Notes under the pieces: generated by a model
The model's input: the letters and a program-made list of their open reading frames with translations, nothing else
Told to the model about the DNA's origin: nothing
The model's database searches: none
Source of the DNA: a virus
Lineage: Duplodnaviria > Heunggongvirae > Uroviricota > Caudoviricetes
DNA length: 64,000 bases
IMG/VR virus record: IMGVR_UViG_3300010354_007935
Coordinates: 46,284-110,283 of that record
Strand: one strand, 5' to 3'
In this document: positions 23,035-53,852 of the stretch, piece by piece
Layout of the letters: every line of letters starts with the position of its first letter
How positions within the stretch are numbered: position 1 is the stretch's first letter
Made by a program: the position numbers and the translations under genes

Positions 23035-23806
23035 ATTCTTCTTTTGTTAATTCTGTGAATAGCCAATCGGCATAAAATTTATGTGCTTCTCTTCCTAAGT
23101 GCCATAACTTATTACTTGTGTCTTGATTTTTAAAACCTGCATCAGAGCACATCCAGTAATAGCTCATATCTTTACGATTGTAATAAGGAAAGTATTTAGT
23201 GTCCAGTAATTTAGTAAGTTTTTGAAACGTTGGAGTATTGCAATAATCGACATAGAAAGAGTCGCCAAACCAATAAGGAATATTAAATTGTTTAAGGATA
23301 CCTTGCAAAGATATAATGTTTTTTATTTTGTTGTCCGACCAAGTTTCGAAACTATTTAAGAACATTGTTTTATACGCCCTAACTACTTCCTGGGTTTCCC
23401 TCCTGCCCCAATCCGGCACTGGGCTTTGGTTTGTAAATGATTGATAATGAGGATCTTCGCAGTAAGAAGAAAATTTTATTTTTAATAAATCCGGATCACC
23501 GAAACGCTCTTGAGAAAAATGGTAATCAAATCTTTCGAACCCAGTCCAGTGTACAAGAAAAAATACATCGAGCTCTTTATTTAAAATCTTTTCTAAATTA
23601 TCTCCAAGCCAAGCCATACTACTTCGACATATACGTTCGTTACTGCCTCCAGGATAGGCCATGTTAATTGCTTCTCTCCCAACCCTTTCTGCAATTAAAT
23701 TTCCAAAGCTATTGCTTCGACAAGTTGGACTATCTCCAACCCCTGCTCCATCTATTTCGCTTCCAGCTGTATGACTACAACCGTTAATTACCAGTACCTT
23801 TTTCAT
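23018..23806 (-). CDS. SGNH/GDSL-like hydrolase paralogue (GCSHT variant)
   Basis: 262 aa. INGCSHTAGSE, YPGGSNERI (GxSN block). Confidence 0.4.
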   Translation of the reverse strand: MKKVLVINGCSHTAGSEIDGAGVGDSPTCRSNSFGNLIAERVGREAINMAYPGGSNERICRSSMAWLGDNLEKILNKELDVFFLVHWTGFERFDYHFSQERFGDPDLLKIKFSSYCEDPHYQSFTNQSPVPDWGRRETQEVVRAYKTMFLNSFETWSDNKIKNIISLQGILKQFNIPYWFGDSFYVDYCNTPTFQKLTKLLDTKYFPYYNRKDMSYYWMCSDAGFKNQDTSNKLWHLGREAHKFYADWLFTELTKEEYGFSI

Positions 23807-24764
23807 ATTTAAACTTTGGTATAATAATGTCTGTTCCGCAAGTGCAATGATGTTTGCCGCATGTTATTTCTTTAGGACCAACTTTAGATACATCATCTAA
23901 TATATGCCCAATATTATCGCCCTGCCCACAACTGGCCATACTAACATTACCTCGTGGATTTATAAAAATACTGTCTCCAATTTTACATTTCCACCCTTTA
24001 AAGAAGTTCTGTCCTTTAACAATAATATCATTGGAACTTAATGGGGATTTCTCCCCATCTGCCCATAGTCCATAACTTACTGCTCCGTTATTTTTTTGCG
24101 GTTTAGGTCTAGTAAACTTCATTTCAACATTGTGTTTATTAATAAACTCAACTTTGCTTGGATCCTTATAGTGCCACGGACCAGCGTTTATGCTTATTTC
24201 ATCAAACAACGGGGTCCACTCAATAAAATAGTTAGGTAAGTTTTCTTTTAAATATTCGCCATATTCTACTACTTCCCAAAATCTTTCATCGTGCATGAGC
24301 ATTTTACTACTTAGATAGTTTACTTTATCGCATAAAAATAAACTGTTCTGAAAGTATTTTATTTTATCTGCAAATTCTATATGGAAGCTAGCTACGACAT
24401 CGTCAAATAATTTGTAGTGCTTTTCCCACCAACCCAGAGGTCGACTAAGGTTAGTATTAACTGCTATAGTAGCATCGGGTAGTTCATTTCTAATCCATTC
24501 ACATATAGGAATAAAATTTCTCCATGCAGTAGGTTCTCCACCACTAAAGAAAAATTTAAATGACTTATATCCAACAGACTTGTATTTTTCAACAATAATT
24601 TGTAGATTTTTTAAGTAAACATCTAAGTTACCGTCGTTAGAGTATGTACCACTCCAGTTTCCTTCATTGCAGTAGCTACATCTGAAGTTACAAAAATTAT
24701 TAACTTGCCATGTTACAGCAAGATAAGGCTGTTGCGGTTCAACAGCGATTAGCTGTGGGCCCAT
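23784..24764 (-). CDS. radical SAM enzyme (N-terminal CxxxCxxC, Cys-rich C-terminus)
   Basis: 326 aa. FCNFRCSYCNEG motif at residues ~23-32, FFSGGEPTAW glycine-rich SAM motif, C-terminal CGQGDN...CGKHHCTCG cluster. Confidence 0.75.
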   Translation of the reverse strand: MGPQLIAVEPQQPYLAVTWQVNNFCNFRCSYCNEGNWSGTYSNDGNLDVYLKNLQIIVEKYKSVGYKSFKFFFSGGEPTAWRNFIPICEWIRNELPDATIAVNTNLSRPLGWWEKHYKLFDDVVASFHIEFADKIKYFQNSLFLCDKVNYLSSKMLMHDERFWEVVEYGEYLKENLPNYFIEWTPLFDEISINAGPWHYKDPSKVEFINKHNVEMKFTRPKPQKNNGAVSYGLWADGEKSPLSSNDIIVKGQNFFKGWKCKIGDSIFINPRGNVSMASCGQGDNIGHILDDVSKVGPKEITCGKHHCTCGTDIIIPKFKYEKGTGN

Positions 24765-26002
24765 TTATAAACCTCCCACAGACCAGGAATGGTTTCGAAA
24801 ATGTCTTCTTTCCTATGTTGATCTAATTTATAGTTGAAATGGAAGAATTCTTTCATACCTTCTTTGTTTTCTTGTCCAGATTGAAGAGTATTCATTACTG
24901 CTTTATATGCATATCGTTGAGTATCAGAATAAGAATAATCGTTGCGAACAGGTTCGTATAATTCTAGTAACTGTTTTTTATAAAACTCTGGAGCTATTAA
25001 TATTGATGCATACCATGGATTGGTCAGTAAGTTTAGTCTTATTTCTTGAGTTTTAGAAAGTAACCCTTTTTCAATCCAGTCTTTGTGAAATTCAGGAAAC
25101 TGATGAACGTTCCATAATGAAATAGTCGGTGTTAATTCGAATAAAACATGCGGCACTTCTTTTTTAATCATTAGTGCATTTAATTCTATATCGTCCCATA
25201 CGGTTCCTTTGCGTACATACTCTGCTAATGGTCCGCTAGCATCTAAACTTGCGTATATTGCCACTTTAGGAAATTTTTTCCAATAGTCTAGTACATTTTT
25301 ATCTTTGTATTTGAATACACTAAAGTTGGTAGTGTACGTTATTTGTACATCAGTTTTTCCTTTCTCTAACCAGTAATCTAAAATTCTATAGTGTTCTGGA
25401 GTAATAAGGGCTTCGCCGCCAGCAAAATAGACTTCCTCGACGTCGTCGAGATAAGGTTCTAATTTATTCCAAAAATCGTCGCCCTCATTATTAGTGACTA
25501 CAATCTTATGCAAGCCAAATCTATCTCTTAATGTAACTTCTCCGTGTCTATCTTTGTATTCTTGGGCCCACTGACTACTACAACTTGGTCCGCAACTACG
25601 GCATTTCATATTGCAGATGTTGCTAAACCTAATGTCCATGTATTTTAGTTGAAAATTTTCAATGGTTCCGTCTTCTTTAGTTTCGTTAACAAGGTGCAAG
25701 TATGTGTTACCTCTTACACGGTTCTGACTTTGTCTTAGACTCCAAGTACCAAGCAATTCTACATCGTAACATCGTTGACATACTTCACTAGGCTCGTTAT
25801 TAATCATCCTCAGACGAAGTTTCTTGTACTCATCCGAGTTCATCATTTTGATAATACTTTCGTCTGTAGTATGAGCTACCGGTTTAGATGAATCGGCCAT
25901 ACAGCAAGGAAACACTTTTGTGTCCGGCCATGCATGGAAATGAATCCACGGTAGGATACAAAAATTTTTTGTATAAAAAATATCTTCTTCAATTTTTCTC
26001 AT
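24749..26002 (-). CDS. radical SAM enzyme with unrecognised N-terminal Cys/His domain
   Basis: 417 aa. N-terminal FCILPWIHFHAWPDTKVFPCC, then the core CNMKCRSC (CxxxCxxC) and YFAGGEALITPEHY. Confidence 0.75.
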   Translation of the reverse strand: MRKIEEDIFYTKNFCILPWIHFHAWPDTKVFPCCMADSSKPVAHTTDESIIKMMNSDEYKKLRLRMINNEPSEVCQRCYDVELLGTWSLRQSQNRVRGNTYLHLVNETKEDGTIENFQLKYMDIRFSNICNMKCRSCGPSCSSQWAQEYKDRHGEVTLRDRFGLHKIVVTNNEGDDFWNKLEPYLDDVEEVYFAGGEALITPEHYRILDYWLEKGKTDVQITYTTNFSVFKYKDKNVLDYWKKFPKVAIYASLDASGPLAEYVRKGTVWDDIELNALMIKKEVPHVLFELTPTISLWNVHQFPEFHKDWIEKGLLSKTQEIRLNLLTNPWYASILIAPEFYKKQLLELYEPVRNDYSYSDTQRYAYKAVMNTLQSGQENKEGMKEFFHFNYKLDQHRKEDIFETIPGLWEVYKWAHS

Positions 26003-26003
26003 A

Positions 26004-27224
26004 TTAACTCATCATAGATTTTAATTCAGGAAAAGTCTTTGTAAAATCTTCTCCTCGTATTTCGTCAACTCTTTTTATTTGAGATTGGAATTCCAATTTA
26101 TATTGATCCCATGTATTTTCAGCATTTGCAAATGAAATAGCGTTTTGCAAACTTTGTGTAGAATAATAATACTCTAATTTTAATTTATAAATTAAGTGCT
26201 GCAATTTTACACTACCTAATTTTTTAAGTTCTTCGGGCATTAGTTGAGAAGAAAAATAAGCAGGGTCCATGCAAGGAAATAGTGATATATTATCTTTAGG
26301 TCGATAAAATCCTTTTACCTTCATATAAGAATAGAATTCTGACAAGGTTAAAAAATTAAACACGCTCATAACAGTATTGAATTGATAATCAATAAAGTCA
26401 TACTGAGTAATTTGTTTTAGATTAGTTTCTATGACGCCCCAGTCAGTTCCGTGCCTAATATACTCTGCACGTTCTCCAAAATGATCGATACTAGCCGACA
26501 ATTCAATTTTTTTAAATTGTTTCCAAAGACCAATCAAATCATTGTTTTTAAATTTAAAATTGCTTAGGTTAGAGTTATATCTTAAAATAATATTTGTTTT
26601 ATTTCTTTTTATAAGCTCTTCTAAAATTGTATAATGTTCTTCTGTAATTAATGGTTCGCCACCTGCAAAATATGCAATTTCAATATTATCAATATGCTCG
26701 TCTAACACTTCTTGAAGTAAGGCTCCTTTGTTATCATCTGCATGTATAATGATAGGAAAATCTTTATTATAAATTCTATTTTCAGCGCCCCATGAGCTAC
26801 TAAATGCAGAACCGCATGTTCTGCATTTAAAATTACAGATATTACTAAAACGAATATCGTAATAGTACATTTTGAAATCTTTGAGGCTACCGTCTTCGTT
26901 GGTGTTTTCTAAGACTTCGTCTAAATGATGAATAAATTTTTCATTTGCATACGTCCTAAAACTCCAATTTTGAGTCTTTTCAGTTTTATAACAAAATTTA
27001 CAAGACGGGCTTTCGACACCATTCATCATGTTTAACCGTATTTGTTTATATCCGTCGGCATTTTTTATTACATCCTTCAAGGTACCATTCTTTACAGACC
27101 CAAAAGGAAGTTTACCGTCTGTAGTACAACAAGGTAGAACATTACCTGAAGGTTCTACGTAGGCGTGTATCCAGGGTAATATACAAAAAGTTTTATTATC
27201 AACTACAGATTTTTTAGATTCCAT
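26004..27224 (-). CDS. radical SAM enzyme, paralogue of 24749..26002
   Basis: 406 aa. FCILPWIHAYVEPSGNVLPCC, then CNFKCRTC and YFAGGEPLITEEHY. Confidence 0.75.
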   Translation of the reverse strand: MESKKSVVDNKTFCILPWIHAYVEPSGNVLPCCTTDGKLPFGSVKNGTLKDVIKNADGYKQIRLNMMNGVESPSCKFCYKTEKTQNWSFRTYANEKFIHHLDEVLENTNEDGSLKDFKMYYYDIRFSNICNFKCRTCGSAFSSSWGAENRIYNKDFPIIIHADDNKGALLQEVLDEHIDNIEIAYFAGGEPLITEEHYTILEELIKRNKTNIILRYNSNLSNFKFKNNDLIGLWKQFKKIELSASIDHFGERAEYIRHGTDWGVIETNLKQITQYDFIDYQFNTVMSVFNFLTLSEFYSYMKVKGFYRPKDNISLFPCMDPAYFSSQLMPEELKKLGSVKLQHLIYKLKLEYYYSTQSLQNAISFANAENTWDQYKLEFQSQIKRVDEIRGEDFTKTFPELKSMMS

Positions 27225-28587
27225 TTTGGTATTCTTTACATAAATTATAAAAATTTGCTAACTCAGGAAATGTTTCTAGAAAATTAACATTCCTTCTTCG
27301 ATCGTATTCATTAAACCAATTATAAAAGTCTTTTCGACCCTCTTTTAATTTATCTTCGGAGTAGTGTGTTGTTTCCATATATGTTACAACACGACGAAAC
27401 TTTTCATACTCCATTTCACTAAAATGAAACCCAGACGAATCATTTAAATTATTTTTGATAAATGATAGACAATCGTGCATATAGGGCATAAACTCATCTT
27501 TAGGTAATATGTTCATGTCATATTGTAGAGGTTCTTTTAAATGCGGAGTATCGAAACGAATTCTATGTTTAGACAAATGTTCATACCATCCGTATTGTCC
27601 GCGCCATTCTAAGATTTTTTCTAGTAAACTTTTAAAATTACTAACGGTAAGAATATTAAAAGTAATCATAAAAGTTACAGGATATTTTGTTTTACTAAGG
27701 TATGTATGAAAATTTCTTTCCCACAGATCTATATCTAGTCCTGTACGAATATATTCTGCACGTTTACCCCATGTATCTAGGCTAGTAAACAACTTAAAAG
27801 ATTTTATTTTATTTTCTAATCTTAATTTTTCAACTTTTTCAGCTAATCTTTCTACTAAAATAGTCTTTACACCTAAGTTACTGTTGAGATTTAACTCTAA
27901 ATTGGGCAAAGGATTCTTATCTAGGTCCTCAAGCAACCGCCAGGTGCTGCGTTGTAGCAAAGGCTCACCACCGGTTATACGCAAGATGTTTAGAGTTTTA
28001 CTGACTTCAGGCCACCATTTCCACCATGCCTCTACATAAGGGTTAGTTTCTTCCTCATAGGTAGTAAACCAATCAATGTCGTTGCGATGATGTTTGACCA
28101 TAGTATAAGGACCAAAGTCTCTTATTTCTTTATGATAAGCACTACTATGTTTAGGATGGCAGTAACCGCATTTAAAATTGCACTCGCTACCAAAACTAAC
28201 TTCAATGTATTCGGGATTTATATTAAAGTCCCAATTGTTCTTTTGTATTTCTTCTATTCTTTCGGGTCTGTAAATACTGGCATTACGTTCGTGCCGATCA
28301 CTAATATAGTCAGGACCAAGTGCCTCTATGTTCCAGCAATACTGACAACCACTGGGTTGATCGCCATCTAACATGGCAGCACGTTGTAGCTTCTTTTCCT
28401 GTGTATTGTGTAATGCACTAGGATTGTCTTTTAATTCGTGTAAAGGAATCTTATGAGGTGCTGGATGATAACAACTATGTGTTTCTCCAGTTTGTAGGTA
28501 TATTGTTGTATGATGCCATTTTGCAAGGCAAAACGTAGGACTAATTTTATTAGTAATGTCCTGTATTTGAATAATTCTATCTTTCAA
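27214..28587 (-). CDS. radical SAM enzyme, distant paralogue with the same N-terminal domain type
   Basis: 457 aa. FCLAKWHHTTIYLQTGETHSCYHP, then CNFKCGYC and ILRITGGEPLL. Confidence 0.7.
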   Translation of the reverse strand: MKDRIIQIQDITNKISPTFCLAKWHHTTIYLQTGETHSCYHPAPHKIPLHELKDNPSALHNTQEKKLQRAAMLDGDQPSGCQYCWNIEALGPDYISDRHERNASIYRPERIEEIQKNNWDFNINPEYIEVSFGSECNFKCGYCHPKHSSAYHKEIRDFGPYTMVKHHRNDIDWFTTYEEETNPYVEAWWKWWPEVSKTLNILRITGGEPLLQRSTWRLLEDLDKNPLPNLELNLNSNLGVKTILVERLAEKVEKLRLENKIKSFKLFTSLDTWGKRAEYIRTGLDIDLWERNFHTYLSKTKYPVTFMITFNILTVSNFKSLLEKILEWRGQYGWYEHLSKHRIRFDTPHLKEPLQYDMNILPKDEFMPYMHDCLSFIKNNLNDSSGFHFSEMEYEKFRRVVTYMETTHYSEDKLKEGRKDFYNWFNEYDRRRNVNFLETFPELANFYNLCKEYQNGI

Positions 28588-30244: not shown

Positions 30245-30999
30245 TATTTTTTCCAGTTAAAAGGACATTTACTTTTTTCTTCTTGTTTATCGATTATTTG
30301 TTTTTGCACTTTGTATTTGTTTAAAAAAGATGTAGGTATTAACCTTTCTCGCATATTAAAGTATTCTTCATTGTTTACTTTGTGCAAGTGAATTTTTAAT
30401 TTTCTTTCTGAAACAGGAACTATATTAACTAATGGTGTTCCTTGCTTAATAAACAATGGTTGTCCAGGGTTGCTAAAATGTAAAAACAAATTAATATCTG
30501 TGTTTGTATTGTATTTGTAATTCAGTGATGCTGGAGGAATAACAATTTCGTGAGGGTTATGAAACGCCCAAGTATTTCCAATCCAACTAAACTGAATATC
30601 TTCTTTACAACTAATAAGCCACGGTGAGTGTAATTTTAAATGAATAAAATCTTTTTGGTCAAGATATCCAGACATTTGTCTGAAATCGTGACTCATTGCA
30701 CCGCTTACACTATCGCTATATTGCCAATTAAATGTTCCGTTGTTTCTATCAACTCCAACTAACAAATCAGACCACATTGGAATCGTCATTCCGTTTTTAT
30801 AAAAATCTAAAAACCCCGCACAACTTTTCATAGTTGGTATCGGGGCCATCGAGCCTTCTTTGTTAAAACTTTTCGGTAGTGATTTCCACCAATCCGGAAA
30901 AAATTTATGGCTATAATCTATAGGGTAAAGGTCATGCACATATTGTCTACTTGTAAAACAATCGACGTGCAGGACCTTCTTTTTAAAAAAAAATAACAT
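30244..30999 (-). CDS. hypothetical protein (251 aa)
   Basis: ORF with ATGA-type coupling. No motif recognised. Confidence 0.35.
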   Translation of the reverse strand: MLFFFKKKVLHVDCFTSRQYVHDLYPIDYSHKFFPDWWKSLPKSFNKEGSMAPIPTMKSCAGFLDFYKNGMTIPMWSDLLVGVDRNNGTFNWQYSDSVSGAMSHDFRQMSGYLDQKDFIHLKLHSPWLISCKEDIQFSWIGNTWAFHNPHEIVIPPASLNYKYNTNTDINLFLHFSNPGQPLFIKQGTPLVNIVPVSERKLKIHLHKVNNEEYFNMRERLIPTSFLNKYKVQKQIIDKQEEKSKCPFNWKK

Positions 31000-31694
31000 T
31001 ACTCTTTCTTTTCACCAAACAACTGTAGCAGGTTCAAGAATAGATTAATAAAGTCCAAATAAAGTGTAAGAGCACCACGAATTTCTGCAATGCCGTCGTT
31101 CTCCATACTGACTTCTTCTCTAATCTGCTGTGTATCGTAGGCAGTAAGTCCGAGGAAAATTAGTATAGCAATAGCACTAATAACCATTTGCATAACTGTA
31201 CTACCAATAAAGATATTTACAATACTAGCAATGATGATAGCAATCAATCCGACAAACAACAAACTACCCAATCCACTAAGATCCTTTTTAGTAAAGTACC
31301 CGTAGCCGCTCATAACACCAAACAGGATTGCACCTCCCATGAAGGCACTGACAATACTGCCCATGTTATAAATGACAAAAATTGTAGCAAAGCTCAAACC
31401 CATTAGTGCGGCAAATCCGTGTAGGCAAAGCTGAGCCATGCTCTTAGTAGGACTCGCATTAAGCAGAATAGTAACACCAAAAATTGCAACTAATGGTGCA
31501 AAAATAACAATCCACTTCATAATTCCTGTAAAGAAAAACGCCATAAGACTGGCATTTGTTCCTACAAGGAAACTTACAATCATACTGGTCAATACTGCTA
31601 GAGCCATATGTCCATAAACACGGCCCATTGCGCTGTTGATTTCGCTAGCAGAGCGATAACTAACAGTATTATCCATGTAACTAGTTCCAAACAT
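30999..31694 (-). CDS. Bax inhibitor-1 / YccA (TMBIM) family membrane protein
   Basis: 231 aa, 7 predicted TM helices. C-terminal LTLYLDFINLFLNLLQLFG matches the conserved BI-1/YccA LYLDFINLF block. Confidence 0.75.
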   Translation of the reverse strand: MFGTSYMDNTVSYRSASEINSAMGRVYGHMALAVLTSMIVSFLVGTNASLMAFFFTGIMKWIVIFAPLVAIFGVTILLNASPTKSMAQLCLHGFAALMGLSFATIFVIYNMGSIVSAFMGGAILFGVMSGYGYFTKKDLSGLGSLLFVGLIAIIIASIVNIFIGSTVMQMVISAIAILIFLGLTAYDTQQIREEVSMENDGIAEIRGALTLYLDFINLFLNLLQLFGEKKE

Positions 31695-31697
31695 ATT

Positions 31698-32069
31698 TTA
31701 CTCCTTGTTTAAAAATGGTTTCAAATTAGGCGGTGTCCAGCCTTCGGGCTTGAGAACTTTACCATCTTCACGCTTACGAACTTTGCCTGTAACAGAATCA
31801 ATCTTAGCAAAGTTAGTACGCATTACTTCGTTCCAAGCACCTTCACCGTCGGCGCCCATGCTATTTATTGCACCAATAGTTACCACTAAAATATCTATTA
31901 GAGCATCTAATTGTTCAACAGGATCGTTAGCTAAGTAGGCTTCGTTAAGTTCTGTAAATTCTTCTGCGATTAAATCGTAGTAAAGTTTGTATTGTGCGCT
32001 ATTATTTTCGCATACAGTTTGATCGCAAGCGACCATAAATTTAGTTTGATCTGCAAACGGATTAGTCAT
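31698..32069 (-). CDS. MazG-like nucleoside triphosphate pyrophosphohydrolase domain protein
   Basis: 123 aa. LIAEEFTELNEAYL...LDALIDILVVTIG resembles the EExxE/ExxD helix pair of MazG/HisE-type NTP-PPases. Confidence 0.45.
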   Translation of the reverse strand: MTNPFADQTKFMVACDQTVCENNSAQYKLYYDLIAEEFTELNEAYLANDPVEQLDALIDILVVTIGAINSMGADGEGAWNEVMRTNFAKIDSVTGKVRKREDGKVLKPEGWTPPNLKPFLNKE

Positions 32070-32283
32070 TTGTTAATTTTTCCCAAGTTAATTCTTTTCC
32101 TTGAACATGAGCCACACATTTAATGTAGCCGTTTTCGTATGCCCATTGTACCTGTTCTCGAATACGCGATGGACAGTCCGGTAGCACATGTAGCATTGCT
32201 CTAGGATAGACAGCAAGGCCGTCAGTGAGGGTAAAGTTAGGATCACCCTGTCTAATAGTCTTAATGTCTGTACACTTAATCAT
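32062..32283 (-). CDS. hypothetical protein (73 aa)
   Basis: Short ORF in the operon. Confidence 0.3.
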   Translation of the reverse strand: MIKCTDIKTIRQGDPNFTLTDGLAVYPRAMLHVLPDCPSRIREQVQWAYENGYIKCVAHVQGKELTWEKLTND

Positions 32284-32498
32284 TTGAGTGCTTCTAGAGT
32301 TTGTCGTTTTGCCTCGTCTGCAACTTCCATTTTATGAATAGTTTGCAAACCTCTAAACATTTCTTCTACAACATGAATTATAGCTTCTTTACCTTCTTCG
32401 GTCAAGTGACTATATTCCGCTCCAACAGAACTTTCATGCCAAACACGTTGATTTTGACTTAGCTCTAACAACGCACCGTAGATGATGTCTTTGTTCAT
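32280..32498 (-). CDS. hypothetical small protein (start revised)
   Basis: The track ORF 32280..32717 overlaps the ligase 3' end by ~200 nt in another frame. An internal Met (MNKDI) at 32498 removes the overlap. Confidence 0.25.
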   Translation of the reverse strand: MNKDIIYGALLELSQNQRVWHESSVGAEYSHLTEEGKEAIIHVVEEMFRGLQTIHKMEVADEAKRQTLEALK

Positions 32499-32511
32499 TG
32501 AACGTCTTATA

Positions 32512-33834
32512 TTAAATTTTCTCGCCATCTTTAAAGCCTCTGAAACGGATAAACCTCGGAAAACGTAGCGAATAAGAACCATCCTGATTCTGAGTGACTG
32601 CGTCAGCTCGTACTTCCACGACTTTCCCAACCACTTCTTCACGAGCTGTCCAGTAATCATCGCGGTTAGCGTCACTGAAGCCGCTACCAACATTAACTCG
32701 TATAGATTTTTCGTCATCTACACCCTCACAAACCAAGGCACCTAATTTACCTACATTACGACCAGTGCCTTCTTCTACAGCCGTAACAGTCAACGAAACT
32801 TCGATAAAAGGTTTAAGTTTAAGCCAAGCCACACTACGCTTGCATTCATACGGAGCAGTTGGCTCTTTAATCATAATACCTTCGTAGCCGCCTTCGATAG
32901 CCTTTTGATTAATTTCTTTAAAACGCTTTTTACCTTCAGGGGTATCGAGATCGACAGCTTCGTGGTCAAGGCAAGTAACATTAGGTAGTGCATCTTGATG
33001 CTTTTCTACCCACGCTTTGACATAAGCACTACGAGTCAGTTGATCTTTGTCCCAGCTACCTTCTTGGAACTTATCCAACGGGCACATATCAAACAAGTGT
33101 AGCACAGCATCGTCTGCGGCTACATCGCTCTTACGATGAACCTGTTTCATCAAGTCTTGGAAACTGCTAGACATAATTTCGCCGTCTAGTACAAGGTCAT
33201 ACTTAGGAGGATCTTTTTTAACTACGGCACTAATTTGTGATTTAATAGTTTCAAAGTTCACCAGTTCTTTGCCGTTGCGAGAAAACTGATCAACACGGCC
33301 ATCAGTACGAACAATCGTAATAACTCGGACACCGTCGAGTTTGACTTCAATAAGTTTCTTTCCTGTGACCTTTGCCTCATGATTAGCACTATCATGAGCA
33401 AGCTGGCAAGTAAAAATGGGTACAGCATAATTGGGCCATTTCTTTTCTACAACCTTGTTGATTGTTTTTTCGCTGGCGCCGCAACGCAGATCCTTGATAA
33501 GGATGCGACGATACCAACCATTCCACTCAGATTGAGTGGCAGTATTCATCAGTGCCTCAACGGCACTCCTGGCAACATTGCCTGTGAGCTCACGATTAGA
33601 TAAACGCTGAGCAACACTATTAAAAGCATCCCAAGATAAGCCAGGCCCGTCTTCATTAGTTTTCTCCGGTATTTGTTTAAGTCCAAACGTAATCATTGGA
33701 TCTAATGCAAGCTGTGCGCCTTCAAAAAATTCGTTATTACCAGCTTCGGCTTGGGCAAGAATAATTGCTTCTTTATCCAAACGACTATTGTGGGTTTCTA
33801 ATGCGGAAATAACATATTGACAAGGATCGCTCAC
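32512..33834 (-). CDS. lig: ATP-dependent DNA ligase
   Basis: 440 aa. KxDG adenylation motif (EVKLDGVRVI) and downstream ligase motifs (DGEIM..., EGIMIKEP). Confidence 0.85.
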   Translation of the reverse strand: MSDPCQYVISALETHNSRLDKEAIILAQAEAGNNEFFEGAQLALDPMITFGLKQIPEKTNEDGPGLSWDAFNSVAQRLSNRELTGNVARSAVEALMNTATQSEWNGWYRRILIKDLRCGASEKTINKVVEKKWPNYAVPIFTCQLAHDSANHEAKVTGKKLIEVKLDGVRVITIVRTDGRVDQFSRNGKELVNFETIKSQISAVVKKDPPKYDLVLDGEIMSSSFQDLMKQVHRKSDVAADDAVLHLFDMCPLDKFQEGSWDKDQLTRSAYVKAWVEKHQDALPNVTCLDHEAVDLDTPEGKKRFKEINQKAIEGGYEGIMIKEPTAPYECKRSVAWLKLKPFIEVSLTVTAVEEGTGRNVGKLGALVCEGVDDEKSIRVNVGSGFSDANRDDYWTAREEVVGKVVEVRADAVTQNQDGSYSLRFPRFIRFRGFKDGEKI

Positions 33835-33879
33835 AGTAAACTCCAGTAGTTAGTTTACCACTATTATATACGATCTTGT

Positions 33880-34611
33880 TTAGTAAGTCAAGTAGTTGTT
33901 TGTTCGAAATGGCTTGCCAAGTTCAACGTTTGGTAATTGCGAAATGGCTTTTCTTTTGATACGTTTGATAATCGGATGATTATGGTTATGCCCAAACGTT
34001 TCCATATATTTGTAAAACGTAGTTCTCTTATGGCGCTTGTATTGGTTGGAATCCAAATATTTTGCAGCCGCATCAAAGTCATTGTCAAATCGATCATAAA
34101 GATCGCAAGCAATGTTGAAACTAAATGCACCCATTTCATCTCGATCTCCGTAATACTGCTGAGCTTTACGATCACGGGCATAGTACGCTGTGCTTTCGTA
34201 TCCAGGAATGGCTTTAAAGTTTCGGCTGCGGTATTGTCTGCAATGAATTATCTCATGTAACATTGTATCTGCAAATAGCGTACATAGTCGTAGCCAACGA
34301 TGTCTGCTTAATTTGAAATACTGTTGTGTGCTATTATAGCTAAAGATTACTTCAATGTAACGACCCGATTGTGTTTTGTCTGGCACACTATAGTAAGTAC
34401 CGCCAACATAAACATAGCCCTTGTCATTTTTTGGATCTCTATCCATTTTGACTTTAATAGGCATATGGCGCTTGATGTGCTTGGCCATTAATTCGTGTAG
34501 CTTTTCTACACTGAGTCTTTGATCAACAACTTTGCTTTGTATGCTGTTTAACATACAAAATAAAGCGTCTCTTGTGAGCAAACTCCAGTTAAAGGGTTTA
34601 CGGACTACCAT
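33880..34611 (-). CDS. HExxH zinc-metalloprotein family protein (paralogue of 43910..44575)
   Basis: 243 aa. MLHEIIHCRQYRSRN... aligns with IHEYRHQGQYRKRN... in the paralogue. Confidence 0.4.
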   Translation of the reverse strand: MVVRKPFNWSLLTRDALFCMLNSIQSKVVDQRLSVEKLHELMAKHIKRHMPIKVKMDRDPKNDKGYVYVGGTYYSVPDKTQSGRYIEVIFSYNSTQQYFKLSRHRWLRLCTLFADTMLHEIIHCRQYRSRNFKAIPGYESTAYYARDRKAQQYYGDRDEMGAFSFNIACDLYDRFDNDFDAAAKYLDSNQYKRHKRTTFYKYMETFGHNHNHPIIKRIKRKAISQLPNVELGKPFRTNNYLTY

Positions 34612-34669
34612 GATTAACTCCTACACAAAGTATTTATAGCTTACATGATAGTCCAATTAACTGCTACTA

Positions 34670-35260
34670 TTATGGGCGTTTTTCCACAATCTCGTCAATC
34701 AACCCATATTCTAGGGCTTCTTGTGCGCTCATGAACTTATCACGTTCCATATCTACACTAAATTGGGCAAAAGTTTTACCCTTACTATTGTGCTTGACAT
34801 AGATTTCTGTCAAAGATTTCTTCATTTTTAGAATTTCTTCGACTTGAATCTGCATGTCTGTAGCCTGTCCACGAGCACCGCCCGAGGGCTGGTGAATCAT
34901 GTGTCTTGCGTTTGGGAGCATTTTTCGCTTGCCTGGAGCTCCTGCTGTGGCAAGGAGACTGCCCATACTGCAAGCCTGGCCCATAACAATGGTGCTAACA
35001 TCGGGTTTGATAAACTGCATAGTATCGTAGATTGCCATTCCCTCAGTAACGACTCCGCCTGGACTGTTGATAAAGAAGTGTATGTCTTCATTTCCTTGAC
35101 TCTCCAAAAATAGTAGCTGTGCTACAATAAGGCTAGCACTATGTTCGTTAACATCTGTATCTAGCATAACAATTCTATCCTTGAGCAAACGACTATAAAT
35201 GTCGTAACTGCGTTCTCCGCGTCCTTCTTGCTCAATAACCATTGGTACCAAATTAGGCAT
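34670..35260 (-). CDS. clpP: ATP-dependent Clp protease proteolytic subunit ClpP
   Basis: [23 protein letters not shown]...GQACSMGS (Ser)...MIHQP (His). The track ORF extends to 35311, but the ClpP-like N-terminus begins at the Met at 35260. Confidence 0.9.
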
Positions 35261-35435
35261 CTTTCTCTCCAAAAATATACGCATCCATTTTGCGCTTAGT
35301 TGTTTCTTCATCCTTCATAGCACAATCAAAACAGATATTCTCATCGTTTGGCCCATAAGGTCTGCACTCGTCTACAACACCACACATTTCACATACTTCG
35401 TCTGGTTGTTGTGCAATAAATCCAGGTCCACTCAT
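35253..35435 (-). CDS. small zinc-ribbon protein (60 aa)
   Basis: [10 protein letters not shown]...CFDCAMKDE (two CxxC pairs). Confidence 0.35.
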
Positions 35436-36235
35436 TAGCGACCGCCGATGTTGCCTAGAGCAGTCATATTGCTAGGAACAATAATAGTGTTGACTTTACC
35501 ATTCTTAATACCTTCGGAGATATTAAGTTCAGCTTGGGCTCGCATGTAAGCAATAGCGGCTGAGTTTTGATTAGCTAGAGCAGCCATACGACGAGCTTCT
35601 GCTTCGGCAGTTTTCACTTCAACTTCCTTTTGTTTGAGTTCGTTTTTACTACGAACCAATTCGTTAGCACTAGCGACAACTGAGTCAGCAGGTACGATGT
35701 TACGAATCAGTACTTGGCCGATAACCAAACTGCCGTCTAGCTTTTCTTCTGCTAGAGTCTTTTGGATCTGCTCCTTGATGCTTTGTTCCATAGTCTGACG
35801 ATTATCTGCCATATCCAATGCTTCGTACTTACGTGCTTCTTTGTAGATAGCATTACGAGCAGTTTGAGTGATGTAATTGTACATCAAATAAATGTCGCCG
35901 TTATGTTTGGCATGAAATGCTTGACTTTTGGTGCTATACAACTCTGCAACTTGTGCTTGATTGATGTTATAGATAACCACAGCATCAAAGTCTTTCATTG
36001 TGCTATTATCTTTAGCAACAGGAGTCATGTCATCAAGTTTGACGTTAACATCCTTGATAGGAAAAGTAAGAACGTCGCCAATCAAAACTTGGTTGAAGGA
36101 TCCGGGCAGAAGCTCGCCACTTTGGACCTGCTTGTCAAAACCAACACGTACACCAACCTCACCGGTTTCGATACGGGTACAGCCAGTAGCGAGAACAGCG
36201 GCGGCGATTAAAGAAAGAGTTGCGATACGTTTCAT
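35435..36235 (-). CDS. SPFH/band-7 (HflC/prohibitin-like) lipoprotein
   Basis: The likely start is MKRIATLSLIAAAVLATGC (lipobox), with a GGAG SD upstream. SPFH-domain pattern (GEVGV...VKLDDMTP...) and an Ala/Glu-rich coiled-coil C-terminus. Confidence 0.65.
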   Translation of the reverse strand: MKRIATLSLIAAAVLATGCTRIETGEVGVRVGFDKQVQSGELLPGSFNQVLIGDVLTFPIKDVNVKLDDMTPVAKDNSTMKDFDAVVIYNINQAQVAELYSTKSQAFHAKHNGDIYLMYNYITQTARNAIYKEARKYEALDMADNRQTMEQSIKEQIQKTLAEEKLDGSLVIGQVLIRNIVPADSVVASANELVRSKNELKQKEVEVKTAEAEARRMAALANQNSAAIAYMRAQAELNISEGIKNGKVNTIIVPSNMTALGNIGGR

Positions 36236-36329
36236 TACATTACTCCAATTGAAAAAAGATAAACTGCCAAAACAAAGCCTAGTGCGGTATACGCAAGGCG
36301 CCCCAAAATTGCTAAAACCATTTTGATTC

Positions 36330-36507
36330 CTTAAAAAATTACAACAATAGCAATTAATGTTGCCAGAGTTAGTATAGCACAACCTAGGCTGTACGTCAAG
36401 AGTTTAGACATGGACCACAGTTCTTTTCCAGTCATTTCTCTCACAGCACGAATACCAAAAAAGAACAATCCAAATACCACAATAAATGCCAAAACTAATC
36501 TAATCAT
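36330..36507 (-). CDS. small hydrophobic membrane peptide (58 aa)
   Basis: Manual translation MIRLVLAFIVVFGLFFFGIRAVREMTGKELWSMSKLLTYSLGCAILTLATLIAIVVIF. ATGA overlap with the upstream gene. A second ~28-aa hydrophobic ORF follows at ~36236..36320. Confidence 0.3.
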
Positions 36508-37208
36508 TTTAATATCCTAAAGTCAAACATTTTATAATAATCAAACGGATAATCTACTTTAGTAATATGTGTTTCGAATTTAGTAGTTGACTGGGTCAAA
36601 ACTATATCTTCGAAAAACTTTCTAAGCAAATTACCTTCGTCTAATTGAATATTATACACAAACCGATTGTCGTCAGCGAACCAGTAAAAAATAAATTTCT
36701 TTTTGTTAACCCAACGACTAGTTTGATGGATATAGACTAATTCTCTTTGAAACTTTTTTAGATTAGGTTTAACTAACGGGCAGTCAGTGACTTGATAATT
36801 TTTGATAATTGAGTCTAGTACCTGATCTTCTTGGTAAAAGTGAGGCAAAGTTACAACCATGCCAACTTCTTTTTTACTCAGTGTTGACTTAACTTGTGAC
36901 AAAAATTGCACTAGATTGCTACGATAGTCACTTAGACGCGAGTCTTTTAAGTTAACCCACATCATTTTCTTGCTGTAATACTCTTTAATAACTTGAGCAT
37001 CGTTAAAGTCGTCCCCTGTTAAGGCGGCTTTAACATTTGGGTCATCGAGTCGATACCATTTAGACGGATCTTCGTCTCGTATTTTCTTAAGACGTACACT
37101 AAGCACCAACGGATCGACATCAAACTTAGTTGGTGCTTCTCGATACTCTGCGTTGAAAATACTGGATAGAGTATCTTCTGTTGTAAGATCTACAGTAGCT
37201 ATATTCAT
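36504..37208 (-). CDS. hypothetical protein (234 aa)
   Basis: ORF with start/stop overlap to its neighbours. Confidence 0.35.
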   Translation of the reverse strand: MNIATVDLTTEDTLSSIFNAEYREAPTKFDVDPLVLSVRLKKIRDEDPSKWYRLDDPNVKAALTGDDFNDAQVIKEYYSKKMMWVNLKDSRLSDYRSNLVQFLSQVKSTLSKKEVGMVVTLPHFYQEDQVLDSIIKNYQVTDCPLVKPNLKKFQRELVYIHQTSRWVNKKKFIFYWFADDNRFVYNIQLDEGNLLRKFFEDIVLTQSTTKFETHITKVDYPFDYYKMFDFRILK

Positions 37209-37759
37209 TAATCAAGCTCTTTCAATGCTTGTGGCGCACGAGCTGCCGCAATTTCGCGTTGGCGATTTGCTTCTTTAGCACGTTTTAGAACGTTGGCATC
37301 GCCGGTAGGCAGGGCAACTAGAACATAAGTCCTGTAACGACCGCCTTCATTGATACGTTTAATTTCTTTGACTTCAACTCCAGTCAAGTCAACTTCTTTG
37401 CAACTAGAACGCAGAGCCATTTCACTAAACTCAGTGCTGGTTGCTTCACTATCAGTGCGATAAATTTTAGTACGTTGGCTAGTAGTACCACCAGCAGTCA
37501 TACAGATTTTACCGTAAGCATCTGCCTTAGCTTTTTGGTCTGCCATGCTGAAATCCGAACTCACCGCAGTACCTGCTTCGTAGACTGCACTTTTGCTAAC
37601 TGGTAGCTCAGTCATCCACTTAGGTGCTTTGTCAATAACACGTTCAGCAAGTTTTTCTCTGCGTTCGTATTCTTGTTCTGCACGTTTTTGATACGGGTCA
37701 CTAGTACCACAAGCTGTCAATGCCGCAATAATTGGCAATAGAATAAAAACCTTTTTCAT
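37208..37759 (-). CDS. lipoprotein (183 aa)
   Basis: MKKVFILLPIIAALTACGTS, a signal peptide with an L-T-A-C lipobox. Confidence 0.5.
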   Translation of the reverse strand: MKKVFILLPIIAALTACGTSDPYQKRAEQEYERREKLAERVIDKAPKWMTELPVSKSAVYEAGTAVSSDFSMADQKAKADAYGKICMTAGGTTSQRTKIYRTDSEATSTEFSEMALRSSCKEVDLTGVEVKEIKRINEGGRYRTYVLVALPTGDANVLKRAKEANRQREIAAARAPQALKELD

Positions 37760-37761
37760 TA

Positions 37762-37884
37762 TTTTCCACCCATCTTTTCTTTAGTCCACTCTGCTGTGGA
37801 TTGAATATCCTTACCAACACCTGCTACAGTTGAGCAAGCAGATAGAGTAAGGGCCAAAATTAATGCTGTAAATGTTTTCATTTT
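37762..37884 (-). CDS. entericidin-like small lipoprotein (40 aa)
   Basis: Manual translation MKTFTALILALTLSACSTVAGVGKDIQSTAEWTKEKMGGK. The LSAC lipobox followed by GVG.DI resembles entericidin EcnA/B (TACNTTRGVGEDI). ATGA overlap with the preceding 42-aa TM peptide (37881..38009). Confidence 0.4.
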
Positions 37885-38042
37885 GCCATCTCCTGTGACT
37901 GTGTTTTAACGGTATCAATGCCCCTATCAAGAATTCGAGCAACGCCCGAAAAACCAACAGTAGCAACTACCAAGCCTAAAATAAAGCCTATTGCAATTTT
38001 AACCATATGTGCCTCTGTGTGAGTTGTAACGACTTTATTATA

Positions 38043-38513
38043 TTACACTTCGGTAATAGCGTCAACTTTTTTGGCAGAAAGGTAATCTTTTTCTTTATAA
38101 GTTTTGATCATGTGGCATCGGCAACATAGTGTTTGGATATTTTCGGCAATATCTTTTCCACCATCCGCTTGGCGTTCCAAATGATCGCCGTGCATCACGC
38201 CCCGCATACAGCGAAGTTTATGGAACGGATCTTCGATGTCATCGAATTGAGAATCTTCTCTTGGATCGTATTTGCATTTAACACAAACCCAACCACGATA
38301 GAATGTGTATGGGCGGTCGGCCTTACCCATTCCACCGTATTCAGCTAGCATTAGTTGGTGCTCGCGACAGTAACTATCACTGCCCGGGCCTTCGTAGTGC
38401 GTTAAGGGATTGCAACAATCTTCGAGCGCACAAGTTAGACCCTTACCAATCTGTTCCTTTAAGACTCCACGACTTTTACGCTTGTCGTATTGCGGATCAC
38501 GCAACTTGCTCAT
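38043..38513 (-). CDS. HNH endonuclease family protein
   Basis: 156 aa. CVKCKYD...HGDHLERQADGGKD...CCRCHMIK (CxxC ... H-N-H-like ... CxxCH). Confidence 0.55.
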   Translation of the reverse strand: MSKLRDPQYDKRKSRGVLKEQIGKGLTCALEDCCNPLTHYEGPGSDSYCREHQLMLAEYGGMGKADRPYTFYRGWVCVKCKYDPREDSQFDDIEDPFHKLRCMRGVMHGDHLERQADGGKDIAENIQTLCCRCHMIKTYKEKDYLSAKKVDAITEV

Positions 38514-39678
38514 CTTTAATCACTTCCCAAAGCCATGCTTTTTTAACAGTAAAACCATTGTTAGCTTCGTACTTAGGTACAGCCAGTTTGGTACTAGCCT
38601 TAAGTTGGGCAATCAAGAACGGAATACCTGTACGCATTTCTGTAGTAAACCCACGAACGATTAGCTCGCCTTTGGCATTGTATTCCTTTTGGTCTGGAGG
38701 AGTGATAGATTCGTACCAATTTGTGTACGCATCTTTAACTTTACTCCAGAAAGGACCATTAGGACTGAAGTCTGCGTCAAAGTAGTCTTTGGTAAATTGG
38801 GTAAACTTAATCAAGTATTCTCGATTAACTTTAATTCCTTGTTCGTGACAAATATTGAAATACTCGTAAAGCTGTCTAGCCTCCTTGGGCTCAACTGGAC
38901 GTTCTTGTCGTAGCAGTGACCAATACTCGGCAAACATTCGAGTAACATCGATATCCTTAAGACTCTTCTCGCTGTCGCTCATAATGGTGCCAGCTAACAG
39001 AGTAAATGCACCTGGTTGGTCTTCGTCACCCATTTTTTCATGGGTAACAAACAGTCCTGCATTTTGGAGATACTCTTGCTTCTTTGCGGCTGCTTCCCAA
39101 ACAGGATCGTTAGAACCGTCGATCAAAACTCCACAAACCATTTGTCGATATTTGTCGTAGAAGTCCAGAGGCTTCTTTGCTTCTCCGTTAAGCAAAATGA
39201 AGTTACGACGGATTTCTGCTTTCATTTTAACAGGGTAGACTACAATTGGAACGGTGATATCTCCAGCCCGTTCGCCGAAAATCTTAGTTGCCAAAATATA
39301 TAATACTATAGCAGTATGTTGCCCGTCCCAGGCAACATAATAACCCGGCTTCTCAGGATCTTCGTAGACCTGAATAGCCATTACCATTGTTTCTTTAAAA
39401 TGGTCCAAAATACTCAGAACGTGCTCAAAATTTACTTGACGTTGCATAGTGGTATCAATAAGGATCTTGTCCATAGTGGTACTCAAACTCTGGCACAAAT
39501 GCAAGTCGCCAAACTTTTTCCATTGTTTATTTCTACGTTTGAATTCGGCAATCGCGGCATCCATTTCGGCAGGAAAGGTACCAGTCAAACATTCGTTCAA
39601 ACGTTCGCGCAAACTAATAAAATGACTACTTGTTTTTTTGAAAAAGTCATTTACTTTTTGAGCATAATTTTTCATCAA
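38497..39678 (-). CDS. hypothetical protein with DGQH motif (possible ParB/DndB-like nuclease fold)
   Basis: 393 aa. VAWDGQHTAIVLYILAT resembles DGQHR-domain proteins (Arg replaced by Thr). Confidence 0.25.
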   Translation of the reverse strand: MMKNYAQKVNDFFKKTSSHFISLRERLNECLTGTFPAEMDAAIAEFKRRNKQWKKFGDLHLCQSLSTTMDKILIDTTMQRQVNFEHVLSILDHFKETMVMAIQVYEDPEKPGYYVAWDGQHTAIVLYILATKIFGERAGDITVPIVVYPVKMKAEIRRNFILLNGEAKKPLDFYDKYRQMVCGVLIDGSNDPVWEAAAKKQEYLQNAGLFVTHEKMGDEDQPGAFTLLAGTIMSDSEKSLKDIDVTRMFAEYWSLLRQERPVEPKEARQLYEYFNICHEQGIKVNREYLIKFTQFTKDYFDADFSPNGPFWSKVKDAYTNWYESITPPDQKEYNAKGELIVRGFTTEMRTGIPFLIAQLKASTKLAVPKYEANNGFTVKKAWLWEVIKDEQVA

Positions 39679-39722: not shown

Positions 39723-40241
39723 TTACCATTTGTCAACCACGATCCAATCATTGTCGTTAACTTGACAAATTACACCGTGGTTTACACGCAACTTATTATT
39801 TTGGACATACCGTTCTTTAAACAATCGGCATTTGGAATTATTATATTTGAAATATCCAGTTTGGCGTTCAGCGCGAAGTAATTCGTTTTCCATAACCACT
39901 TCACCAACTTTAACCGGCTTATCAAATAGTTCTCCACCTTCTTTACAAGTGGTAACTACTTCGGTTCGATACTTACCAGCCAGTGTTACCAGCAGTTCAT
40001 TCTTACCACGCTCAATAGCTTCGGCACAATCTTTATGGGCAGAGTTTACCTTGTGCTCAACACCATTAACCAAAATAGAATAACTAACTTGACAACTATC
40101 GCCTTTGACAGTTTTAATCAAATTGAGTACAGGCCCGGTTTCTACTTCCTGTATCATTTGGCTAGCTTCTTTTACACGGCAATCGGCAAGAGCTTCTTTG
40201 AAAACAAATAGTGCAACAACAGCCAATATAAAGTATTTCAT
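39723..40241 (-). CDS. secreted protein (signal peptide)
   Basis: MKYFILAVVALFVFKEALA signal sequence. Several Cys. Confidence 0.4.
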   Translation of the reverse strand: MKYFILAVVALFVFKEALADCRVKEASQMIQEVETGPVLNLIKTVKGDSCQVSYSILVNGVEHKVNSAHKDCAEAIERGKNELLVTLAGKYRTEVVTTCKEGGELFDKPVKVGEVVMENELLRAERQTGYFKYNNSKCRLFKERYVQNNKLRVNHGVICQVNDNDWIVVDKW

Positions 40242-40489
40242 TCTACACCGCATTTCCAAGTGTACCACCAAATAGTAGCTTTGAGTCTACTATTGTAAGC
40301 ACGATCTTCTTCGTTTAGGTTGTCTGGATTAGGGTCAAAGTTTTTACGCATCTGAACCTTACGCAACTGTGCCAATTGCTTGTCGGCTTTGGCACATTGC
40401 ATAGGGTAGTCTACTAATTGCTGATAAGTTAGATTGGTATCTTCGCATCCAACTAACAGACAAAATAGTAGTGGTATCATGTATTTCAT
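40238..40489 (-). CDS. small lipoprotein (83 aa)
   Basis: MKYMIPLLFCLLVGC lipobox. Confidence 0.4.
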   Translation of the reverse strand: MKYMIPLLFCLLVGCEDTNLTYQQLVDYPMQCAKADKQLAQLRKVQMRKNFDPNPDNLNEEDRAYNSRLKATIWWYTWKCGVE

Positions 40490-44796: not shown

Positions 44797-44799
44797 TAT

Positions 44800-44964: not shown

Positions 44965-44985
44965 ATAGCAGTATTTACTCTTAAT

Positions 44986-45844: not shown

Positions 45845-45870
45845 TTGTGCCTCTGTGTGTAGTTAATCGG

Positions 45871-53845: not shown

Positions 53846-53852
53846 TTACATT

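Follow-up and report, generated by a model that had tools for sequence, protein, structure and literature searches.

Poxvirus GAAP proteins are virus-borne copies of a cellular cytoprotective channel of the TMBIM family, also called the Bax inhibitor-1 (BI-1) family. Two cellular members, YccA and mitochondrial TMBIM5, are both inhibitors and substrates of FtsH-type proteases (PMC9379554), and lambda CIII is a phage-encoded protein that likewise serves as FtsH inhibitor and substrate (PMC1838920). Lipoproteins with an SPFH domain have been annotated in several phage groups, and their function has been called unclear (PMC13239085, PMC10892097). ClpP is patchily distributed in jumbo phages, and a host-directed use of the protease has been proposed (Iyer et al., PMC7824862). 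Here we analyzed a locus in which a BI-1 protein, an SPFH lipoprotein and a ClpP lie within a few kilobases of each other. The locus is part of a 64-kb stretch of viral DNA (positions 46,284-110,283 of the IMG/VR record IMGVR_UViG_3300010354_007935), which we call the window and whose own coordinates are used throughout. An initial annotation of the window had described a cluster of membrane-integrity and cell-death genes at 30999-37884. It had suggested that they form a holin/antiholin-like timing module or an anti-abortive-infection module.

The concentration of envelope and proteostasis genes in this region was genuine, and its best explanation was a different one. In this explanation the interval belongs to a long arm of accessory genes in the genome of an uncultivated jumbo phage. 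It comprises at least four independently inherited cassettes, interleaved with DNA-metabolism genes, and these cassettes likely serve early host takeover in an abundant clade of uncultivated jumbo phages. We put the probability of this reading, taken as a whole, at about 0.6. A 3607-residue tail-fiber-like open reading frame (ORF; 4373-15196) contained several PHROG tail-fiber and virion-structural domains, and other PHROG virion families were also present. Together with the related viral contigs, these identified the element as a phage. Homologues with 70-89% identity were found on hundreds of IMG/VR viral contigs, the longest of which measured 364 kb. In a DNA-level search, no near-identical DNA was found among deposited phage genomes.

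All of the genes named by the initial annotation were present, at or beside the places assigned to them, on the minus strand. Every gene between 28 and 46 kb lies on this strand, and the features of the region described below all belong to it. In the order of transcription, a first cassette consists of tm42, a 42-residue peptide with a single transmembrane (TM) segment (37878-38006), ecn40, a 40-residue entericidin-like lipoprotein (37759-37881), and lipo183, a 183-residue lipoprotein (37208-37759). It is followed, after an insert, by tm58, a 58-residue two-TM protein (36331-36507), tm28, a 28-residue single-TM mini-ORF (36235-36321), and the 266-residue SPFH/Band-7 lipoprotein (35435-36235). 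ClpP (34670-35260) comes next, and the downstream end is occupied by a 231-residue multi-pass inner-membrane protein of the BI-1/TMBIM (Bax1-I) family (30999-31694). Envelope proteins were called by hydropathy and lipobox scans of about 73 window genes. Membrane proteins and lipoproteins made up 7 of the 15 genes in the flagged interval, compared with 11 of 73 in the window (hypergeometric P = 8e-4), a clustering that exceeds chance. The other 8 of the 15 genes were a DNA ligase, a MazG-like gene, an HExxH protein, a Zn-ribbon protein, ClpP and further ORFs that had no family match.

Two more envelope genes lie just upstream of the flagged interval. One encodes sec176, a secreted protein of about 176 residues with a signal peptide (39723-40253), and the other an 83-residue lipoprotein, lipo83 (40238-40489, lipobox LLVGC-E). 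Neither belongs to a Pfam family. In relatives, sec176 abuts tm42 (25 loci) and lipo83 lies directly upstream of sec176 (20 loci). The island thus reaches to about 40489, beyond the end first given to it, and lipo83 is the outermost upstream gene of the conserved envelope block. In the window, sec176 and tm42 are separated by an HNH endonuclease gene (Pfam HNH, E 8e-8) and a 393-residue ORF (38043-39678). The HNH gene was found in none of 161 related loci and the 393-residue ORF in one. Since sec176 abuts tm42 in relatives, the two genes are an insertion specific to this phage. The insertion splits the ancestral envelope block and looks like the recent arrival of a mobile element. At its 3' end, the HNH gene extends into the conserved promoter of tm42.

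The division into cassettes became evident when the window proteins were compared by tblastn with the 161 related viral loci and co-occurrence was counted in non-redundant loci. Two sets were used, one anchored on BI-1 (n=27, with at least 7.5 kb available upstream) and one anchored on SPFH (n=20). Around BI-1, the ligase was present in 19 loci, ClpP in 18, ecn40 in 14 and SPFH in 9. Around SPFH, tm58 was present in 16 loci and ClpP in 5, and BI-1 and ecn40 were each present in 1. BI-1 also occurred without any of the other genes in many loci, and SPFH was missing from five loci that were otherwise collinear (L020, L022, L028, L038 and L047). The genes tm42, ecn40 and lipo183 were always contiguous (25-27 loci), forming an invariant trio. 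BI-1 was linked to ClpP (18/27) no more than to the ligase (19/27), and is therefore not associated with ClpP in particular. Equal linkage to both genes is what plain collinear descent predicts.

The arrangement of promoters led to the same division. A sigma-70-type promoter close to the consensus (TTGACG-17-TATAAT, 38037-38065) precedes tm42 and is followed by a GAGG Shine-Dalgarno sequence. Ten of 13 relatives had this promoter and the 5' untranslated region (ACACACAGAGAGGC) in the same position. A second promoter, upstream of the ligase (33891-33863), matched 11 of 12 consensus positions in the window, and 14 of 15 relatives had a promoter with at least 11 of 12 matches ahead of this gene. 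With conserved promoters before both tm42 and the ligase, the block probably comprises two or more units transcribed by host RNA polymerase. The sigma-70 type of these promoters suggests early rather than late expression. Gene identities, catalytic and sensor residues, cassette boundaries, the conservation of promoters and the dissociation of cassettes are matters of direct observation in these comparisons.

Several points weigh against the reading as independent early cassettes. The related loci were the 80 best matches for each query, a biased sample, and were seen over no more than 10 kb on either side. The promoter calls are consensus matches only. Both AlphaFold2 (AF2) models used here were of low confidence, with predicted local distance difference test (pLDDT) values of 55 and 63, the latter for lipo183; the available homologues were too alike, which accounts for the low to moderate confidence. 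The closest relatives keep the cassettes collinear over about 8 kb, so that a loose functional association of the cassettes is possible. ClpP was found directly beside BI-1 in one divergent contig (L172). Finally, the nearest cellular BI-1 proteins came mostly from metagenome-assembled genomes (MAGs) of Bacteroidota, a poor fit with the sigma-70 and Shine-Dalgarno signals.

These last observations bear on the host. Sigma-70-type promoters, Shine-Dalgarno sites and lipoprotein processing point to a Gram-negative host, as do the lipoboxes and the entericidin-type protein, and the host may possibly be a proteobacterium. Three contigs assigned to Bacteroidota MAGs (L171, L172 and L173) carry BI-1 proteins with 67-76% identity to that of the window. 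L172 is a Crocinitomicaceae MAG contig (JBDNIA010000102.1, 5377-6672) with ClpP directly upstream of BI-1. The BI-1 neighbors in the other two are also of the phage type, a ligase in L171 and a 279-residue ORF in L173. Given these phage-like neighbors, the three are probably mis-binned phage contigs. Alternatively, they could give a weak hint about the host.

Of the small proteins, ecn40 could be compared with a described family. The initial annotation had likened it to entericidin and had coupled it to a 42-residue TM peptide. The coupling was borne out: ecn40 and tm42 overlap by 4 nucleotides, and tm42, the first gene of the cassette, extends 122 nucleotides past the end of the interval first flagged. 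The likeness to entericidin was partly supported. After the lipidated Cys, ecn40 has the motif C-[SN]-T-x-x-G-[VFLI]-G-[KEQ]-D-[IV] in common with E. coli EcnA and EcnB. The C, T, both G and D residues were invariant in the alignment of the three, so that ecn40 is a small lipoprotein carrying the entericidin motif. Against E. coli EcnB, hhalign gave a probability of 96.8% over 28 columns, to which the signal peptide contributed in part. However, the scores stayed under the curated cut-offs, at 20.1 bits for Pfam Entericidin PF08085 (E 6e-4, cut-off 23.3, 11 of 20 profile positions) and 27.1 bits for NCBIfam EcnB NF007487 (E 2.4e-6, cut-off 94). Within the ecn40 family, 10 of 13 members matched Pfam Entericidin (E < 0.01) and no other family, the window protein giving the best value. 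We therefore describe ecn40 as entericidin-like, below all curated thresholds.

Compared with the EcnA/EcnB pair, ecn40 is alike in being a lipoprotein of about 40 residues with the same mature N-terminal motif. It differs in its C-terminal half (AEWTKEKMGGK), where the entericidins have a tail rich in Gly, Ala and Ser. It also differs in its partner, which is an unrelated 42-residue TM peptide instead of a second Ecn-like lipoprotein, and in the LPP20-like lipoprotein that follows. We considered tm42 as an entericidin paralogue that had lost its lipobox and rejected it. The hhalign probability was 0.6% and no lipobox was seen, so that the two genes do not form a tandem entericidin pair. The tail of tm42 (ATVGFSGIARMLDKGVDTVKTQSQEMAK) was conserved. 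The ratio of nonsynonymous to synonymous polymorphism (pN/pS) was 0.31 for ecn40 and 0.47 for both tm42 and tm58, with synonymous sites near saturation. The small ORFs are conserved in length and sequence and under purifying selection, and are real genes. The literature searched on phage entericidins held nothing specific.

No sequence-level family match was found for lipo183, LPP20 included. Its AF2 model, of moderate confidence, had a core flanked by long N- and C-terminal helices. The core probably adopts an LPP20-like periplasmic fold, a predicted likeness to the LPP20 family (H. pylori HP1456) and to Francisella FTT_1539c that has no counterpart at the sequence level. The activities, partners and timing considered for this and the other cassettes are those we infer. 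The tm42-ecn40-lipo183 cassette would be moron-like, with its own promoter and early expression by host RNA polymerase. It might alter the periplasm or the outer membrane, either stabilizing the envelope or excluding competing phages. Between this cassette and tm58 lies a variable insert, a 234-residue ORF (36504-37208) that had no Pfam, PHROG or NCBIfam match and a homologue in 2 of 161 loci.

The SPFH protein of the initial annotation was confirmed as a lipoprotein of the Band_7 family (PF01145; E 5e-19). It has a signal peptide ending in the lipobox LATG-C, followed by the SPFH domain and by long coiled-coil helices, so that a profile score above threshold and an SPFH fold with coiled-coil extension were both found. 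The best structural matches were HflK, prohibitin, stomatin, flotillin and QmcA. Sequence-level searches of the PDB, with the single sequence and with a profile, matched no solved SPFH protein. The two tiny hydrophobic peptides noted ahead of the SPFH gene are tm58 and tm28, and both are conserved in relatives. The gene for tm58, constant in length, immediately preceded SPFH in 80 of 97 loci (16 of 20 when redundancy was removed). tm28 overlaps the SPFH start, and its conserved peptide, LRPLYFxLGFxVCFxLFSxGVI, fills an extra stretch of about 87 nucleotides in 13 of 73 tm58-SPFH loci. It is thus an optional third member of this cassette. A similar arrangement was seen in more distant phages. 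Phage BUCT-ZZ01 has an SPFH protein with 44.5% identity and a 58-residue two-TM ORF at the same place, and in a T4-like Acinetobacter phage two small TM ORFs precede the SPFH lipoprotein. The PHROG family phrog_200 ('SPFH domain band 7 family lipoproteins') occurs in Vi01-like phages, T4-like Acinetobacter phages and others. In the literature searched on phage SPFH function, we found nothing specific.

HflK/HflC, QmcA-YbbJ and the SPFH-NfeD cages have Band_7 domains and long coiled-coil helices, and SPFH-NfeD operons include a gene for a small membrane-protein partner; all of these are also present here. In contrast to the SPFH-NfeD cages, the phage SPFH is anchored by a lipoprotein signal instead of a TM helix or hairpin, and its partner tm58 has two TM segments and lacks the NfeD OB domain. 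No match of tm58 or tm28 to the NfeD family was found in Pfam, so the operon is not of the SPFH-NfeD type. In topology, the lipid anchor corresponds to the membrane anchor at the N-terminus of HflK/C. SPFH and tm58 would probably form a lipid-anchored ring or cage facing the periplasm, which might organize or enclose the small partner itself or a membrane protein of the host. A sigma-70-like sequence (TTGACG-17-TATACT, with an extended -10 TG) lies within the tm58 coding sequence at 36371-36399. In 26 of 57 relatives, the 100 nucleotides ahead of SPFH contained a promoter-like match to at least 10 of 12 consensus positions, compared with 0 in shuffled controls. The site may be an SPFH promoter or a by-product of conserved codons.

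The lipoproteins also raise the question of competing phages. Phage lipoproteins and small membrane proteins are known to exclude superinfecting phages, as with T5 Llp, the Cor lipoproteins and T4 Imm and Sp. The region could accordingly be read as a superinfection-exclusion or receptor-masking island, in which early lipoproteins and small membrane proteins block adsorption or injection, with BI-1 and ClpP as unrelated neighbors. All four lipoproteins found in the window (SPFH, lipo183, ecn40 and lipo83) lie within 35.4-40.5 kb, the tm42 cassette has a conserved host-type promoter of its own, and the cassettes are gained and lost in the fashion of morons. In E. coli, the residue at position +2 after the lipidated Cys decides sorting, and lipoprotein without Asp at this position goes to the outer membrane. 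None of the four has Asp at +2, so by this rule they would be outer-membrane proteins, although the rule is that of E. coli and may not be that of the host. On the other side, no sequence similarity to known exclusion proteins was found in Pfam, PHROG, NCBIfam or PADLOC. The SPFH protein is also unusually conserved for an arms-race gene, with 83-97% identity among the best 120 homologues listed. We consider this reading unlikely.

The phage-encoded BI-1/TMBIM protein is the most noteworthy element of the region. The initial annotation had called it BI-1/YccA. Membership of the BI-1 family was clear, with a score of 181.7 bits for Pfam Bax1-I PF01027 (E 2e-53, cut-off 34.1) over profile positions 2-207 of 207. 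A hydropathy scan showed 6 strong TM segments, in keeping with this multi-pass family. The protein is not a YccA orthologue, however, since it scored 48.1 bits against the 353-bit cut-off of the NCBIfam equivalog NF007765. Residues 35-227 aligned to the B. subtilis YetJ structure 4pgw (E 1e-11). Both pH-sensor aspartates of YetJ (D171 and D195) were aligned with aspartates in the phage protein, within YDT and LYLDFINLF. Among phage homologues these were conserved as D187 in 55 of 55 and as D214 in 48 of 55. The full-length Bax1-I match, the multi-pass topology and the two aspartates are thus features in common with YetJ, YccA and other TMBIM proteins. The differences from these are that the protein is encoded by a bacteriophage, that it is no YccA orthologue, and that it is 38-44% identical to the cellular homologues found, mostly from Bacteroidota MAGs.

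This BI-1 is widespread in its environmental phage clade and nearly absent from deposited phage records. IMG/VR gave at least 253 matches. A protein search gave at least 8000 scored candidates, viral and cellular together, and all of the 120 matches listed were at least 79% identical. In contrast, among 50,697 deposited phage records, tblastn found just two weak, unannotated matches. We found no description of a phage-encoded BI-1 in the literature searched. It may be regarded as analogous to poxvirus GAAP, both being viral versions of a cytoprotective channel of cells. It could act as a pH-gated cation-leak channel, as a pseudo-substrate like YccA that dampens FtsH activity in the host, or as both. 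In either case, it would keep the inner membrane of the infected cell functional.

The module proposed at the outset can now be weighed. In it, ecn40 and the TM peptides would permeabilize the membrane, and BI-1, SPFH and ClpP would restrain them, as an integrated device for cell death, lysis timing or protection against abortive infection. The significant enrichment of envelope genes and the entericidin signature of ecn40 are in line with such a device. So are the cytoprotective role of the BI-1 family in eukaryotes and the restraint of FtsH by YccA (PMC9379554). Gene starts and stops from tm42 through ClpP overlap or nearly abut, and the complete gene order is preserved in the nearest relatives (L021, L034, L041, L065, L071 and L152). 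Against this, unrelated genes, among them the ligase and MazG, interrupt the proposed module, and separate conserved promoters divide it, their sigma-70 type suggesting early and not late expression. The cassettes also dissociate in relatives. No endolysin, holin or spanin family was found in Pfam and PHROG scans or in the recorded Pfam hits across the 64-kb window, which together covered part of the ORFs. PADLOC defense models gave no significant match; the sole match, of 22.6 bits, was in the SPFH region, and no stretch passed alone. As a two-component spanin, tm42 and ecn40 appear too short, judging from the sizes of their parts, a tail of about 20 residues and a mature lipoprotein of 24. 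A single module of this kind is therefore improbable, and the claim for it was not supported. In a broad sense, the idea that the phage acts on the host envelope and on proteostasis is plausible.

A related proposal keeps the parts together through the host proteases. BI-1, the lipid-anchored SPFH cage and ClpP would jointly rewire the FtsH-HflKC/Clp axis of the host and so block suicide or abortive infection, with the ecn40 cassette as a controlled membrane effector. BI-1 would then be an FtsH pseudo-substrate and SPFH a mimic or competitor of HflKC. Suicide triggered by envelope stress would be blocked through the long jumbo-phage cycle, in the manner of anti-death genes of eukaryotic viruses. 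We regard this proposal as improbable.

In the reading as independent cassettes, ClpP and its neighbors form a further part of the island. The ClpP ORF is open from 35311, and its likely start is M18 at 35260. The initial identification was upheld by Pfam CLP_protease (E 2.8e-77) and by NCBIfam PRK00277 (298.7, cut-off 249); the score for the TIGR00493 equivalog was 280.4, under its cut-off of 308.6. The protein is 62% identical to E. coli ClpP, N-terminal segment included. The Ser-His-Asp triad aligned with that of E. coli, and in phage homologues Ser and His were each conserved in 30 of 30 covering alignments and Asp in 29 of 29. By these features, it is a canonical, cellular-type ClpP, full-length and predicted to be catalytically intact. 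Its nearest cultured relatives are those of the jumbo phages Atu_ph07 (Agrobacterium, 71.5% identity, the closest) and Phosso. It differs from the cellular and jumbo-phage ClpP proteins in its surroundings, flanked by the Zn-ribbon and HExxH proteins and with no annotated ClpX, ClpA or ClpS in the window. No AAA+/Clp ATPase (ClpX, ClpA) or ClpS was found among the called genes with Pfam hits on record, which represent part of the ORFs. Because no unfoldase is annotated in the window, the partners of ClpP would be the host unfoldases. Assembled with ClpX or ClpA of the host, ClpP could increase regulated proteolysis or redirect it.

Two other roles were considered for ClpP. A pairing with SPFH of the NfeD/stomatin (STOPP) type was rejected, as ClpP is canonical, the NfeD1b_N score was 15.2 against a cut-off of 40, and the two genes dissociate in relatives. 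It is highly improbable that ClpP is a virion prohead (head-maturation) protease placed here by chance, with its small neighbors as assembly factors: PHROG's top ClpP-like matches are named 'head maturation protease' (phrog_94, E 4e-51) and the homologue in one copy of the Atu_ph07 record is labeled likewise, but this full-length canonical protein covers just positions 56-252 of the 622-position phrog_94 profile, it passed the cellular model PRK00277 and scored too low for the head-maturation model NF045542 (107.8, cut-off 120), and the genes called over about 10 kb around it included no capsid, scaffold, portal or terminase family.

Between SPFH and ClpP lies the gene for the 60-residue Zn-ribbon protein (CxxC...CxxC, 35253-35435). 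It has four invariant Cys residues and an ECRPYGPN motif, matches phrog_18256 (E 5e-9) and varies in position in relatives. As a mimic of the ClpX zinc-binding domain it was rejected, with an hhalign probability of 1% and no Pfam or NCBIfam support. Downstream of ClpP, the 243-residue HExxH protein (33880-34611) is a candidate zinc metallopeptidase. The motif HExxH..Q.R.R...Y....DE was invariant in 29 unique homologues, including paralogues of 26% identity on the same phage contigs, and sequence-level searches gave no Pfam and no PDB match to the protein or its family. It may represent a new family of zinc metallopeptidases adjoining ClpP. The gene follows ClpP in 17 of the 27 BI-1-anchored loci. 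The ATP-dependent DNA ligase comes next (32512-33834; Pfam DNA_ligase_A_M, E 3.5e-20; OB_2, E 4e-13). It is separated by two ORFs of about 72 residues from the MazG-like NTP pyrophosphohydrolase (31698-32069; Pfam PRA-PH, E 2.4e-9). The latter is not an envelope protein and is syntenic with BI-1, which it adjoins in 14 of 27 related loci.

The domains of the region all come from known families, and mosaic islands of accessory genes are nothing unusual in jumbo phages. The interest lies in particular genes. The phage BI-1 offers a tractable bacterial-virus analogue of poxvirus GAAP, and allows one to ask whether phages exploit the YccA-FtsH relationship as lambda CIII exploits FtsH. The SPFH lipoprotein and its constant partner tm58 make a minimal two-gene module suited to experiments. 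The entericidin-like cassette, with a host-type promoter of its own, places a poorly understood family in a new setting. Concepts would change only if a function is shown for these genes.

The rest of the window was viewed through the recorded Pfam hits of its called genes, which span about 7-64 kb and fall short of a scan of every ORF. They included accessory metabolism (fatty-acid desaturases, acyl carrier protein, acyl-AMP ligase, ketoreductase, BKACE and a Rieske protein), a DctP-type binding protein, a superoxide dismutase, PTPS and seven enzymes of the radical-SAM/SPASM type. Four of these enzymes (457, 406, 417 and 326 residues) are encoded consecutively on the minus strand at 23784-28587, directly downstream of the BI-1 transcription unit, and the run is followed by a DUF6071 protein (23018-23806). 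Together they could constitute a pathway for peptide or nucleotide modification. A set of genes for lipid and acyl modification, including two radical-SAM enzymes, extends over 47988-63375. It contains an ATP-grasp GARS_A protein (49250-50584), a fatty-acid desaturase (50533-51321), an acetyltransferase (53304-53765), a DctP-type solute-binding protein (53853-54809), BKACE (57780-58646), a short-chain dehydrogenase/KR (58643-59362), an AMP-binding acyl ligase (59359-60723) and a Rieske protein (61612-62418). A second desaturase and the acyl carrier protein lie beyond the window end. This set suggests that the phage also remodels the membrane lipids of the host.

Stress and cofactor genes are found at 15196-19337. 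These encode an IscA-like Fe-S biogenesis protein (15196-15537), an Fe/Mn superoxide dismutase (15834-16397), an EF-hand/dockerin-like ORF on the plus strand (16438-16827), a UvdE endonuclease (17054-18073), a 2OG-Fe(II) oxygenase (18202-18834) and a PTPS/QueD-like protein (18831-19337). On the other side of the island, a MazE-antitoxin-like gene of 56 residues is followed by an IF-1/eIF-1a-like gene of 72 residues (44578-44966), and a tRNA-Arg(TCG) is located at 45869-45966.

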